From: Escherichia coli
Lineage (GTDB): Bacteria > Pseudomonadota > Gammaproteobacteria > Enterobacterales > Enterobacteriaceae
DNA: 64,000 nucleotides
NCBI RefSeq assembly: GCF_024502345.1
Contig: NZ_JALDNN010000001.1
Reading direction: 5' to 3' (one strand)
A model generated the notes under the pieces. That model ran no database searches and had not been told where the DNA came from. It saw only the letters and a program-made list of their open reading frames with translations. This document shows, one piece after another, positions 25,214 to 61,612 of the stretch (position 1 is its first letter; every line of letters starts with the position of its first letter). The translations under genes were made by a program, and so were the position numbers.

Positions 25214-25242
25214 ATCGCCTCCCATTAACTATTGCCAGCTAC

Positions 25243-25259
25243 AAGCAATAATTGTGCCA
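25243..25259 (-). promoter_or_regulatory. sigma54 (-24/-12) promoter for the hyp operon
   Basis: Minus strand reads TGGCAC-aatta-TTGC (plus strand GCAAtaattGTGCCA) with correct GG-to-GC spacing. Confidence 0.75.
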
Positions 25260-25372
25260 GTGTTGATTATCCCTACAGTGAATAATGTCGATGATGTCGA
25301 AATGACACGTCGACACGGCGACGAAATTCACCAAAATCTTAAAAATCGCTTTAATAACAATAAATTAAAAGT

Positions 25373-25388
25373 TGGCACAAAAAATGCT
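25373..25388 (+). promoter_or_regulatory. sigma54 (-24/-12) promoter for the hyc operon
   Basis: TGGCACaaaaaaTGCT with correct GG-N10-GC spacing, ~40 bp upstream of hycA. Confidence 0.75.
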
Positions 25389-25424
25389 TAAAGCTGGCAT
25401 CTCTGTTAAACGGGTAACCTGACA

Positions 25425-25886
25425 ATGACTATTTGGGAAATAAGCGAGAAAGCCGATTACATCGCACAGCGGCATCGTCGCCTACAGGACCAGTGGCACA
25501 TCTACTGCAATTCGCTGGTTCAGGGGATCACGTTATCGAAAGCGCGCCTGCATCACGCCATGAGCTGCGCGCCGGACAAAGAACTCTGTTTCGTCCTTTT
25601 TGAACATTTTCGTATTTACGTCACCCTGGCGGATGGCTTTAACAGCCACACCATCGAGTATTACGTCGAAACAAAAGATGGCGAAGACAAACAGCGGATT
25701 GCGCAGGCGCAACTGAGCATTGACGGCATGATTGATGGCAAGGTCAACATCCGCGATCGCGAACAGGTTCTGGAACACTATCTCGAAAAAATCGCTGGCG
25801 TTTACGACAGCTTATACACCGCTATTGAAAACAATGTGCCGGTGAATTTAAGCCAACTGGTAAAGGGACAAAGCCCGGCAGCATGA
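25425..25886 (+). CDS. hycA: formate hydrogenlyase regulatory protein HycA
   Basis: 153-aa protein recognised as HycA. Confidence 0.95.
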   Translation: MTIWEISEKADYIAQRHRRLQDQWHIYCNSLVQGITLSKARLHHAMSCAPDKELCFVLFEHFRIYVTLADGFNSHTIEYYVETKDGEDKQRIAQAQLSIDGMIDGKVNIRDREQVLEHYLEKIAGVYDSLYTAIENNVPVNLSQLVKGQSPAA

Positions 25887-41125: not shown

Positions 41126-42259
41126 CTACACCGTCAACATTTTCAACAATCCAAATGCCTCTTTCATCCGATCCTCACTGACCACAAAGGCGCGAAGCTG
41201 GTCAGCATCGTCAACGCCGCGCGCCACCATTCCCTGGCGTTCGGTATTAATTTGCCAGCGTAAATCCTGACGCTGGGTTTCGCCTGCCAGATGCAGCGGT
41301 AATTCCGGCGTTTTGATTTTCACCAGCATCGCCGGGAGTTTCAGTGGCGTGTTATTGCCGAGAAGATTTTTTGCCAGCACCATCGCGCTAAGTTGAATCG
41401 GCTGGAGGAACGGCAATACCTGACCGTTAATTTCCGCGCAATCGCCCAGCGCGTAAATATCGGTATTACTGGTTTGCAGATAACTATCGACGCAAACGCT
41501 GCGATTAATCGTCAGCCCGGCGCGTCGTGCCAGGGCGGTTTCCGGGCGCAGTCCGGTGGCGGCAATTACCGCATCCACTTCGATGCTACGCTGGCGGTCC
41601 AGCGTTGCCAGAATGCCAGAATCCGTTTTTTCCAGCCCCTGTAACTGAGATTTCAACAGCAGATGAACGCCCATCTCCGTCAACCGATGCTGCAAGCGGC
41701 TGCTTACTTCCGGTGGCATTAACGACGCCAGAATACTGGCAGCGTTGTCGATTAGCGTGACCGCTTTGCCTGCACGACAAAAATCCATCGCCAGTTCGCT
41801 ACCAATCAAACCACCGCCAACAATCAACACGCGTCGGGCATCCCGCAGTTGCGTTTCACAGGCGCGATACTCTTGCTGACTATTTAACGTCAGCATTAAC
41901 TCACGCCCAGGCACAGGCGGGACAAAGGCACTGGCACCGGTTGCCAGTACTAGCTTGTCGTATTGCCACTGATTATTCTGGCTTTTCACCACACGGGCTT
42001 CGGCATCGATATCCGTCACCCAGGTTTGTGGAAACAGGTGCAGATTAAACTGCTCGGCAAATTCACCCGCCGTCTGGCGGGTAAGGTCATCGGCACGTTG
42101 CCCCTGACTGATAACATGGCTGAGGTCAGGTTTGTTGTACTCATCCATGCTGTCGGCGGCAATCAGGGTTAATGGAATAGTGGCGTCCTGTTTGCGAATA
42201 TTTTTCACCAGTTGGCGGGCGGCGAAGCCCGAACCGATGATCACAATGCCGTTACTCAT
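41126..42259 (-). CDS. norW: NADH:flavorubredoxin reductase NorW
   Basis: 377 aa with FAD/NAD GxGxxG motifs. Confidence 0.95.
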
Positions 42260-43695
42260 TTTGCCTCCGATGCCAGTTCGTCAAAGACGTCTTTGCCGAG
42301 GGAGCATTCCGGGCAGAGGAAGTTATCCGGGACTTCACTCCACGGCGTTCCTGGCGCAACGTCCTGCATTGGCTCGCCTTTTGCCGGATCGTAAATCCAC
42401 TGGCAGACGCTGCACTGCATTCGTGGGCCGAGGTCAGCCGTCGTCGTGGCAGAGGTTTCTTCTTTAACTACCGTATTCACCGTGCTCTGCGGCAGCGGCG
42501 CGAGCGCCCACTGACGGGCGATTTCGCGACCGTGTTCACGGCATAACTCCAGAGCGTCCTGGTCTGGTCGCCATTTGGCTTTCAGGCTGAGCGACATTTC
42601 GAAACCCGCATCCTGCAGGCGCGTGGAAAGGCGATCCACCGCACCGCCGCTCCAGCCGTGAGAGCCGAAAGCACTGGCGCGTTTGTTACGGAAGCGTAAT
42701 CCGGTCATCTCCTCCACCAGCCCGGCGATTTTCGGCATCATCACGTTATTCATCGTCGAAGTGCCGACCAGCACGCCTTTTGAGCGGAAGACATTGGTCA
42801 GGATTTCGTTTTTATCGCTTCGGGCGACGTTGAAAATTTTCACCGCCACGCGTGGGTCGGTTTCCGCAATCCCCTGGGCGATAGCGTCAGCCATCATGCG
42901 GGTGTTATTCGACATGGTGTCGTAGAAAATGGTGATTCTGTCTTCCTGATAATCAGCGGCCCACTTCAGGTACAGCTCGACAATTTGCGTCGGGTTATCG
43001 CGCCAGACCACGCCGTGGGAGGTCGCTATCATATCGACTGGTAAGTTAAAGCCCAGGATCTCGGTAATTTTCGGCGTTACCAGGCGGCTGAACGGCGTCA
43101 GGATATTGGCGTAGTAACGCTGGCACTGCTCGAAAAGCTCCGTCTGATCCACTTCATCGTTGAACAGATGCTCGTCGCAGTAGTGCTGACCGAAAGCATC
43201 GTTACTGAACAGCACCGCGTCGCCTGTCAGGTAAGTCATCATGCTGTCCGGCCAGTGCAGCATTGGCGTTTCGACAAAAATGAGCTGTTTGCCGTTGCCG
43301 ATATCCAGCGTGTCACCAGTTTTCACCACATTAAAATTCCACTCCGGATGATGGTGATGACCATTTATCGAGTCGATAGCGTTGGCAGTACAGTAAATCG
43401 GCGTATCGGGAATTTGCGCCATCAGTTCGGTCAGCGCCCCAGCGTGGTCCTCTTCTGCATGGTTAATCACGATGTAATCGATATCCGCCAGATCGATTTC
43501 ATTACGCAGGTTCTGCACAAATTCGCGGCTGAATTTATGGTCGACGGTGTCGATCAGCACGTTTTTTTCTTCGCGGATGAGGTAGCTGTTGTAACTGCTG
43601 CCGCGCAGCGTTTTATATTCCGTACCGTGAAAATCACGCACTTCCCAGTCACGTTGACCAACCCAATGAATGTTATTTTTCACCACAATAGACAT
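42256..43695 (-). CDS. norV: anaerobic nitric oxide reductase flavorubredoxin NorV
   Basis: 479 aa; metallo-beta-lactamase-like, flavodoxin and C-terminal rubredoxin (CxxC...CxxC). Confidence 0.95.
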
Positions 43696-43741
43696 AGCAA
43701 CCTCAATTTATTCAGCGTGTTCTAAAAAGATGTCTTGCTAA

Positions 43742-43758
43742 TTGCAGATTACGTGCCA
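43742..43758 (-). promoter_or_regulatory. sigma54 promoter of norVW
   Basis: Minus strand reads TGGCAC-gtaat-cTGCA with correct -24/-12 spacing. Confidence 0.75.
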
Positions 43759-43813
43759 GTTTTTTATCTGATTGTTTTTACTCTATAAATAAAATTATGC
43801 TCATTAATGAGTA

Positions 43814-43869
43814 GTCAAAATGACTATCAATCAAATGGTCGATATGACAATATCTATAGTCAAATTGAC
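43814..43869. promoter_or_regulatory. three NorR enhancer-binding sites (GT-N7-AC type)
   Basis: GTCAaaaTGAC (43814-43824), GTCgataTGAC (43838-43848), GTCAaatTGAC (43859-43869). Confidence 0.8.
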
Positions 43870-43881
43870 AGTGAGGCAAAG

Positions 43882-45396
43882 ATGAGTTTTTCCGTTGATG
43901 TGCTGGCGAATATCGCCATCGAATTGCAGCGTGGGATTGGTCATCAGGATCGTTTTCAGCGCCTGATCACCACGCTACGTCAGGTGCTGGAGTGCGATGC
44001 GTCTGCGTTGCTACGTTACGATTCGCGGCAGTTTATTCCGCTTGCCATCGACGGTCTGGCAAAGGATGTACTCGGTAGACGCTTTGCGCTGGAAGGGCAT
44101 CCACGGCTGGAAGCGATTGCCCGCGCCGGGGATGTGGTGCGCTTTCCCGCAGACAGCGAATTGCCCGATCCCTATGACGGTTTGATTCCTGGGCAGGAGA
44201 GTCTGAAGGTTCACGCCTGCGTTGGTCTGCCATTGTTTGCCGGGCAAAACCTGATCGGCGCACTGACGCTCGACGGGATGCAGCCCGATCAGTTCGATGT
44301 TTTCAGCGACGAAGAGCTACGGCTGATTGCTGCGCTGGCGGCGGGAGCGTTAAGCAATGCGTTGCTGATTGAACAACTGGAAAGCCAGAATATGATGCCA
44401 GGCGATGCCACGCCGTTTGAAGCGGTGAAACAGACGCAGATGATTGGCTTGTCCCCTGGCATGACGCAACTGAAAAAAGAGATTGAGATTGTGGCGGCGT
44501 CCGATCTCAACGTCCTGATCAGCGGTGAGACGGGAACCGGTAAGGAGCTGGTGGCGAAAGCGATTCATGAAGCCTCGCCACGGGCGGTGAATCCGCTGGT
44601 CTATCTCAACTGTGCCGCACTGCCGGAAAGTGTGGCGGAAAGTGAGTTGTTCGGGCATGTGAAAGGAGCGTTTACTGGCGCTATCAGTAACCGCAGCGGG
44701 AAGTTTGAAATGGCGGATAACGGCACTCTGTTTCTGGATGAGATCGGCGAGTTGTCGTTGGCATTGCAGGCCAAGCTGCTGAGGGTGTTGCAGTATGGCG
44801 ATATTCAGCGCGTTGGCGATGACCGTAGTTTGCGGGTCGATGTGCGCGTGCTGGCGGCGACTAACCGCGACTTACGCGAAGAGGTGCTGGCAGGGCGATT
44901 TCGCGCTGACTTGTTTCATCGCCTGAGCGTGTTTCCACTTTCGGTGCCGCCGCTGCGTGAGCGGGGCGATGATGTCATTCTGCTGGCGGGGTATTTCTGC
45001 GAGCAGTGTCGTTTGCGGCTGGGGCTCTCCCGCGTGGTATTAAGTGCCGGAGCGCGAAATTTACTGCAACACTATCGTTTTCCGGGGAACGTGCGCGAAC
45101 TGGAACATGCTATTCATCGGGCGGTAGTGCTGGCGAGAGCCACCCGCAACGGCGATGAAGTGATTCTTGAGGCGCAACATTTTGCTTTTCCTGAGGTGAC
45201 GTTGCCGCCGCCAGAAGCGGCGGCGGTGCCCGTTGTTAAGCAAAACCTGCGTGAAGCGACAGAAGCGTTCCAGCGTGAAACCATTCGCCAGGCACTGGCA
45301 CAAAATCATCACAACTGGGCTGCCTGCGCGCGGATGCTGGAAACCGACGTCGCCAACCTGCATCGGCTGGCGAAACGTCTGGGATTGAAGGATTAA
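43882..45396 (+). CDS. norR: NO-responsive sigma54-dependent activator NorR
   Basis: Starts [18 protein letters not shown]...; GAF domain, AAA+ domain ([14 protein letters not shown]), C-terminal HTH. Confidence 0.93.
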
Positions 45397-57699: not shown

Positions 57700-57792
57700 G
57701 GTGAGGTGGCCGAGAGGCTGAAGGCGCTCCCCTGCTAAGGGAGTATGCGGTCAAAAGCTGCATCCGGGGTTCGAATCCCCGCCTCACCGCCA
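57700..57792 (+). tRNA. serV: tRNA-Ser (anticodon GCU)
   Basis: GGTGAGGTGGCCGAGAGG...CTGCTAA...GGTTCGAATCC...CACCGCCA; long variable arm. Confidence 0.95.
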
Positions 57793-57795
57793 TTT

Positions 57796-57872
57796 GCATC
57801 CGTAGCTCAGCTGGATAGAGTACTCGGCTACGAACCGAGCGGTCGGAGGTTCGAATCCTCCCGGATGCACCA
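57796..57872 (+). tRNA. tRNA-Arg (anticodon ACG), copy 1
   Basis: GCATCCGTAGCTCAGCTGGATAGAGTACTCGGCTACGAACCGAGCGGTCGGAGGTTCGAATCCTCCCGGATGCACCA. Confidence 0.95.
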
Positions 57873-58007
57873 TATTCTCCGTAACCTTCAGCGATGAAGG
57901 TATGGAAGAGGTGGCGGTACTAACCGCAGGCACCAGGGAGAATAACGTTGCTTTAGCAACGGCCCGAAGGGCGAGCCGCAAGGCGAGTAATCCTCCCGGA
58001 TGCACCA
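57873..58007 (+). repeat. ~135-bp spacer repeat unit ending in a duplicated tRNA-Arg 3' fragment (unit 1)
   Basis: Ends ...AATCCTCCCGGATGCACCA, identical to the T-arm/acceptor 3' end of tRNA-Arg. Confidence 0.8.
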
Positions 58008-58071
58008 TCTCTTACTTGATACGGCTTTAGTAGCGGTATCAAAAAATCTGCAGTAAAGTAAGTTTCCCGAT

Positions 58072-58148
58072 GCATCCGTAGCTCAGCTGGATAGAGTACT
58101 CGGCTACGAACCGAGCGGTCGGAGGTTCGAATCCTCCCGGATGCACCA
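58072..58148 (+). tRNA. tRNA-Arg (ACG), copy 2
   Basis: Identical 77-nt sequence. Confidence 0.95.
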
Positions 58149-58210
58149 TCTCTTACTTGATATGGCTTTAGTAGCGGTATCAATATCAGCAGTAAAATAA
58201 ATTTCCCGAT

Positions 58211-58287
58211 GCATCCGTAGCTCAGCTGGATAGAGTACTCGGCTACGAACCGAGCGGTCGGAGGTTCGAATCCTCCCGGATGCACCA
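58211..58287 (+). tRNA. tRNA-Arg (ACG), copy 3
   Basis: Identical 77-nt sequence. Confidence 0.95.
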
Positions 58288-58422
58288 TATTCTCCGAAAT
58301 CTTCAGCAATGAAGATATCGAAGAGGTAGCGGAATTAACCGCAGGCACCAGGGAGGATAACGTTGCGCCAGCAACGGCCCGAAGGGCGAGCCGCAAGGCG
58401 AGTAATCCTCCCGGATGCACCA
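58288..58422 (+). repeat. spacer repeat unit with tRNA-Arg 3' fragment (unit 2)
   Basis: Near-identical to unit 1. Confidence 0.8.
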
Positions 58423-58485
58423 TCTCTTACTTGATATGGCTTTAGTAGCGATATCAATATCAGCAGTAAAATAAATTTTCCCGAT

Positions 58486-58562
58486 GCATCCGTAGCTCAG
58501 CTGGATAGAGTACTCGGCTACGAACCGAGCGGTCGGAGGTTCGAATCCTCCCGGATGCACCA
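58486..58562 (+). tRNA. tRNA-Arg (ACG), copy 4
   Basis: Identical 77-nt sequence. Confidence 0.95.
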
Positions 58563-61470: not shown

Positions 61471-61543
61471 GAAAAAGGCCACTCGTGAGTGGCCAAAATT
61501 TCATCTCTGAATTCAGGGATGATGATAACAAATGCGCGTCTTT
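61471..61543 (-). ncRNA. micA: small RNA MicA (SraD)
   Basis: Minus strand reads GAAAGACGCGCATTTGTTATCATCATCCCTGAATTCAGAGATGAAATTTTGGCCACTCACGAGTGGCCTTTTT. Confidence 0.9.
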
Positions 61544-61612
61544 CATATACTCAGACTCGCCTGGGAAGAAAGAGTTCAGAAAATTTTTAAAAAAATTACC
61601 GGAGGTGGCTAA

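Follow-up and report, generated by a model that had tools for sequence, protein, structure and literature searches.

The region between the divergently transcribed norR and norV genes raises the question whether this Escherichia coli strain carries the complete set of control elements for norVW, whose products remove host-produced nitric oxide (NO), and whether these elements can be expected to work as they do in the K-12 strain. The stretch of E. coli DNA which was analysed as a whole, referred to here as the window, comprises 64,000 nucleotides. Within it, norV and norW make up one transcription unit and norR the unit diverging from it, and the gap between norV and norR (43696-43881) is 186 bp long. 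A preliminary description made from the sequence had placed a σ54 promoter and three NorR sites between positions 43742 and 43869 and had concluded that the NO-responsive regulation is intact in this strain. From the evidence given below, we are almost certain that we are dealing with the E. coli norVW control region and that it is of the K-12 type.

Genes of the locus and their products

The NorV, NorW and NorR proteins were assigned by the NCBIfam equivalog cut-offs, which all three passed across their full length (Table 1). NorV residues 1-479 align to profile positions 1-479 of 479 (NF003954). NorR differs from the K-12 protein in seven amino-acid substitutions, none of them in a residue with a known function. 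It keeps R75, D96, D99, C113 and D131, which we take to be the iron-site residues (Tucker et al. 2008), and retains GAFTGA at 262-267 and the Walker A motif GETGTGKE at 215. A cognate AAA+ enhancer-binding protein with a GAFTGA loop is consequently encoded next to the promoter. The residue numbering is consistent with the published one, in which G266 falls within GAFTGA (PMC2941729).

In the best public match to the window, NZ_CP027544.1 (strain 2013C-3264), norR and hypF are annotated as frameshifted pseudogenes, whereas norR of the window is an intact frame of 504 aa. This discrepancy in norR is likely to reflect either indel errors in the assembly of that record or a genuine strain difference. 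An Rfam scan found no RNA families in the norR-norV region; elsewhere in the window, it detected a cluster of five tRNA genes at 57700-58559 (+) and the MicA sRNA at 61473-61544 (-).

Table 1 Genes and control elements of the norW-norV-norR locus, with positions in the window
Feature	Position	Strand	Remarks
norW, NADH:flavorubredoxin reductase	41126-42259	-	377 aa, full-length; NCBIfam NF003437, 679 bits (cut-off 392)
norV, flavorubredoxin NO reductase	42256-43695	-	479 aa, full-length; NCBIfam NF003954, 1047 bits (cut-off 711)
Putative norV transcription start	43732	-	12 nt downstream of the -12 C; 37-nt leader
σ54 promoter of norVW (predicted), TGGCACGTAATCTGCA	43743-43758	-	Pattern match to TGGCACNNNNNYTGCW
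Candidate IHF core site (WATCAANNNNTTR, norV strand)	43765-43777	-	2 mismatches in E. coli; degenerate
NorR enhancer site 1, GTCAAAATGAC	43814-43824		Centre at about -87; nearest to the promoter
NorR enhancer site 2, GTCGATATGAC	43838-43848		Centre at about -111
NorR enhancer site 3, GTCAAATTGAC	43859-43869		Centre at about -132; ends 12 nt before the norR ATG
norR, NO-sensing σ54 enhancer-binding protein	43882-45396	+	504 aa, full-length; NCBIfam NF003451, 827 bits (cut-off 476)

The σ54 promoter and the NorR sites

The norVW promoter TGGCACGTAATCTGCA faces norV and lies 48 bp upstream of its ATG. It consists of the -24 element TGGCAC (43753-43758 in plus-strand coordinates), the spacer GTAAT and the -12 element CTGCA, with G and C at 43745 and 43744. 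The spacing of the GG and GC dinucleotides is exactly 10 bp, as expected of a σ54 promoter with the context TGGCAC-N5-TTGCW. The pattern TGGCAC-N5-YTGCW occurs three times in the whole window, where 0.25 matches were expected, and none of 100 shuffles reached this number; the remaining two matches fall in the hypA/hycA region, one being the hypA promoter at 25244-25259 and the other lying inside hycA. In K-12, a σ54 ChIP-seq peak was assigned to the motif CTGGCACGCAATCTGCA upstream of norV, which is flagged as experimentally confirmed in EcoCyc (PMC4591121). The spacer base at 43751 is the single difference between this motif and TGGCACGTAATCTGCA. Occupancy by the σ54 holoenzyme was thus demonstrated on the K-12 sequence, and the promoter of the strain studied here is a predicted site.

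The standard geometry of σ54 promoters would place the norV transcription start at 43732. This position agrees with the value of 37 which Bonocora et al. (2015, Table 1; PMC4591121) give as the norV distance. The hexamer AAGATG around it (43727-43732) is 80-99% conserved.

The divergent hypA/hycA control region (25226-25424) also carries σ54 promoters. That of hypA is on the minus strand, and the hycA promoter, TTGGCACAAAAAATGCT, lies at 25373-25389 (+); neither differs from its K-12 ChIP-seq motif. The palindrome GTCGAAATGAC (25296-25306) is located between them. A σ54-like motif, TGGCACATCTACTGCA, is present at 25494-25509 (+) inside the hycA coding sequence, approximately 70 bp past its start; it did not turn up in the main text of the σ54 ChIP-seq paper (Bonocora 2015; PMC4591121).

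Upstream of the norV promoter, three GT-N7-AC inverted repeats form the triad characteristic of NorR enhancers, and each of them conforms to GTC-N5-GAC (Table 1). Such short repeats might be chance matches in AT-rich intergenic DNA with no regulatory role, and GTC-N5-GAC by itself is indeed not over-represented in the window (14 copies found, 11 expected). The clustering of the repeats argues against this explanation: the three copies lie within 56 bp, and mononucleotide shuffling of the window, repeated 2,000 times, produced three copies within 60 bp in only 3 cases (Poisson expectation approximately 6e-4). Moreover, exact matches to the stricter consensus RGTCRAWWTGACW were found at the three NorR sites only in the whole 64 kb. 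Another copy of GTC-N5-GAC, GTCACGTTGAC at 43648-43658, was considered as a fourth NorR site and rejected, as it falls inside the coding sequence of norV and downstream of the start.

The identity of the repeats with experimentally essential sites is a further argument against chance. The mutagenic primers Site1, Site2 and Site3 of Tucker et al. (2010) turn GT-N7-AC into GG-N7-CC (PMC2831303). Each of these primers matches the window once, with exactly two mismatches, which correspond to the engineered changes GT to GG and AC to CC. Since only the engineered bases mismatch, the repeats in the window are base-for-base the K-12 NorR sites 1-3, for which footprints as well as mutants have been published. 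Site 1 is also identical to the published 21-bp site 1 oligonucleotide (PMC2831303). In K-12, disrupting any single site abolished the induction of norV-lacZ in vivo and resulted in the loss of both the enhancer-stimulated ATPase activity and open-complex formation, and a 266-bp fragment with the three NorR sites was found to stabilise a ring-shaped higher oligomer (PMC2831303). NorR binding and NO-dependent activation have been published for K-12 (PMC2831303, PMC2941729); with identical sites, both would be expected in this strain as well.

For E. coli, IHF is reported to bind in the stretch from the start site to the enhancers (Tucker 2004, cited in PMC2831303). The consensus WATCAANNNNTTR did not match anywhere within 43760-43812 at one mismatch or fewer, and the scan of the window with the IHF consensus gave 57 matches against 48 expected. 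A candidate was suggested by comparison with other species: at the aligned position of 43765-43777, directly upstream of the -24 element, YAAN4TTGATW, which reads WATCAANNNNTTR on the norV strand, is perfectly matched in 27 of 79 Enterobacterales species and has two mismatches in E. coli, and the columns 43766 and 43773 are invariant across the 79 intergenic regions compared. IHF may therefore be tentatively placed at 43765-43777.

All the elements named in the preliminary description were thus located where it had put them, and the limits which it gave, 43742 and 43869, enclose the stretch from the -12 element to the final base of site 3. Its statement that an enhancer-dependent architecture can be read from the sequence is well founded, as the promoter and site matches are well above chance and the sites are identical to those of K-12. 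The comparison with the characterised norV promoter which it had proposed showed sites 1-3 to be identical and the promoter to match CTGGCACGCAATCTGCA except for one spacer base. Dispensability of the sites, named there as the result that would speak against this interpretation, is contradicted by the K-12 data, according to which each site is essential for norV activation (PMC2831303).

Conservation in Enterobacterales and variation within E. coli

A scan based on the NorR protein yielded 80 loci in species-representative genomes of Enterobacterales. In 78 of them, norV is located divergently upstream of norR with an intergenic distance of 179-192 bp; the sequence examined at the remaining two loci yielded no norV. 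The window and these 78 loci provided an alignment of 79 distinct norV-norR intergenic regions. The half-sites were invariant against the background of their surroundings: the 18 half-site columns (GTC and GAC in three sites) showed 99.9% identity and the columns of the -24 TGGCAC and the -12 TG 99.4%, whereas the mean identity of all other intergenic columns was 64.1%. Without any prior input, this pattern recovered the promoter core together with all three NorR sites. Apart from the IHF site, which is placed tentatively, the cross-species footprint covers every element that has been defined by experiment. Taking together the shuffling statistics, the identity to the tested sites and the conservation pattern, we consider a chance origin of the motifs to be excluded for all practical purposes.

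The conservation also extends to the geometry of the region. Three strict NorR sites are present in 77 of the 79 sequences, and the remaining two carry a one-base change in one site. The start-to-start spacing of the sites is 24 and 21 bp in 76 of these 77 sequences, and the distance from the centre of site 1 to the GG of the -24 element is 60-63 bp in all 77. The half-sites of site 1 are invariant across the species, and site 2 is the most conserved of the three, with GTC and ATGAC invariant or nearly so. In other Enterobacterales, such as Salmonella, Citrobacter, Enterobacter and Klebsiella (for the NorR regulon, see Rodionov et al. 2005), the norR-norVW region resembles that of E. coli in the three tandem sites, their 24 + 21 bp spacing and their distance to the promoter. 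In contrast, many genera have TTGATA as the -12 element instead of CTGCAA, and a perfect IHF consensus instead of the degenerate one of E. coli. Escherichia, Citrobacter and Salmonella share CTGCA as the -12 element (43743-43747 in the window), and TTGATA is found in genera such as Enterobacter, Klebsiella and Kosakonia; more than half of the species lack the C of the canonical -12 GC, whereas the TG is invariant.

The locus, the gene order and the intergenic length of 186 bp are the same as those of the K-12 norVW promoter (Tucker et al. 2004, 2010; Gardner et al. 2003), with NorR sites 1-3 and the -24 and -12 elements identical and 184 of the 186 bases matching. The two differences from K-12 MG1655 are a C to T change at 43751 on the norV strand (TGGCACG-T-AAT here, TGGCACG-C-AAT in K-12) and a C to T change at 43801, within the AT-rich DNA that separates the promoter from site 1. 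Both fall outside the recognition elements.

We have also considered that the architecture is present but that these two changes measurably alter the output of norVW. The rarity of the promoter variant would be in favour of this: the exact 66-bp promoter segment 43725-43790 with the spacer T is limited to 57 of the 5,426 complete E. coli genomes, and the promoter variant of the window is unique among the 79 intergenic regions. However, the base at 43751 comes first in the non-specific spacer that follows TGGCACG, and a T at this position occurs in several other species (TTGGCACGTAACTTGATA and similar) and is therefore tolerated. Position 43801, for its part, lies in a poorly conserved stretch with a column identity of 30-50%. 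An altered output thus seems quite unlikely to us, and the region is best regarded as K-12-like in its sequence and probably also in its function. Strains of O121 and O121:H19 STEC were among the top matches for the 66-bp promoter segment. It might be speculated that the rare spacer change, together with the change at 43801 in the bend region, tunes norVW induction in an O121-type STEC lineage, which we consider decidedly improbable. The rarity of the spacer variant in E. coli is a new observation.

Within E. coli, the 381-bp segment around the control region is 100% identical to that of strain 2013C-3264 and has at least 95% identity in 5,425 of the 5,426 complete genomes, and 3,735 records contain the 66-bp enhancer block in identical form. 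In the blood isolate AF3 (NZ_OZ547117.1, retrieved segment 397-537), a 45-bp deletion fuses site 1 to site 3, leaving a single NorR site; this deletion, also newly observed here, was seen in the one most divergent match retrieved and may be an assembly error. Considering the published mutagenesis (PMC2831303), norVW should be silent and non-inducible in this isolate.

Activation of norVW and control of norR

The individual steps of norVW activation have been demonstrated in K-12 by others and would apply to this strain on the grounds of its near-identical sequence. Three NorR dimers would occupy the three GT-N7-AC inverted repeats approximately 87, 111 and 132 bp upstream of the putative start, and the enhancer DNA itself would drive the assembly of a NorR hexamer, which would be poised but inactive. 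The binding of NO to the non-haem iron of the GAF domain would release the AAA+ domain from repression. IHF would bend the AT-rich segment that separates the enhancers from the promoter, and the resulting loop would allow the hexamer to reach the σ54 RNA polymerase waiting in a closed complex at TGGCAC-N5-CTGCA. ATP hydrolysis would then open the promoter and norVW would be transcribed. The intact NO-responsive regulation claimed in the preliminary description holds for the cis elements and for the norR, norV and norW reading frames; for the strain itself, with rpoN and the IHF genes (ihfAB) situated outside the window, it is to be expected by analogy with K-12.

Alternatively, the three sites could serve mainly as operators for the negative autoregulation of norR, with the activation of norV being secondary. 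The distance from the end of site 3 to the norR ATG is 12 nt in 67 of the 79 sequences, and the norR promoter must therefore overlap the sites; NorR is also annotated as a "dual regulator" in K-12. On the other hand, every site is needed to activate norV as well as for ATPase activity and the formation of open complexes (PMC2831303), and the distance to the -24 element, fixed at 60-63 bp, points to selection on the activation geometry. No convincing σ70 promoter of norR was located either, the search having produced one minus-strand match with 1.4 expected. A primarily autoregulatory function of the sites is highly improbable, and we regard them as activator sites of norVW. Owing to the position of site 3, the same sites probably also repress norR. 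Autoregulation of norR and activation of norV are compatible roles and do not exclude each other.

The system resembles nifH/NifA, glnAp2/NtrC and Pu/XylR in having an activator bound approximately 100 bp upstream, IHF-assisted looping and ATP-dependent opening of a -24/-12 closed complex. Unlike the activators of these systems, NorR needs three dimer sites, the enhancer DNA is a ligand for hexamer assembly, and NorR is regulated while assembled on DNA and not via control of its oligomerisation (PMC2831303).

The norVW control region as such is already known and ordinary, and nothing about it is conceptually new. NorR is a model for the enhancer-DNA-dependent assembly of a σ54 activator, and the norV status has been linked to the survival and virulence of EHEC. 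If the induction of norVW were tuned by the two base changes, this could, in view of that link, bear on NO resistance during infection. The intact region itself shows only that the strain carries the standard NO-defence circuit.
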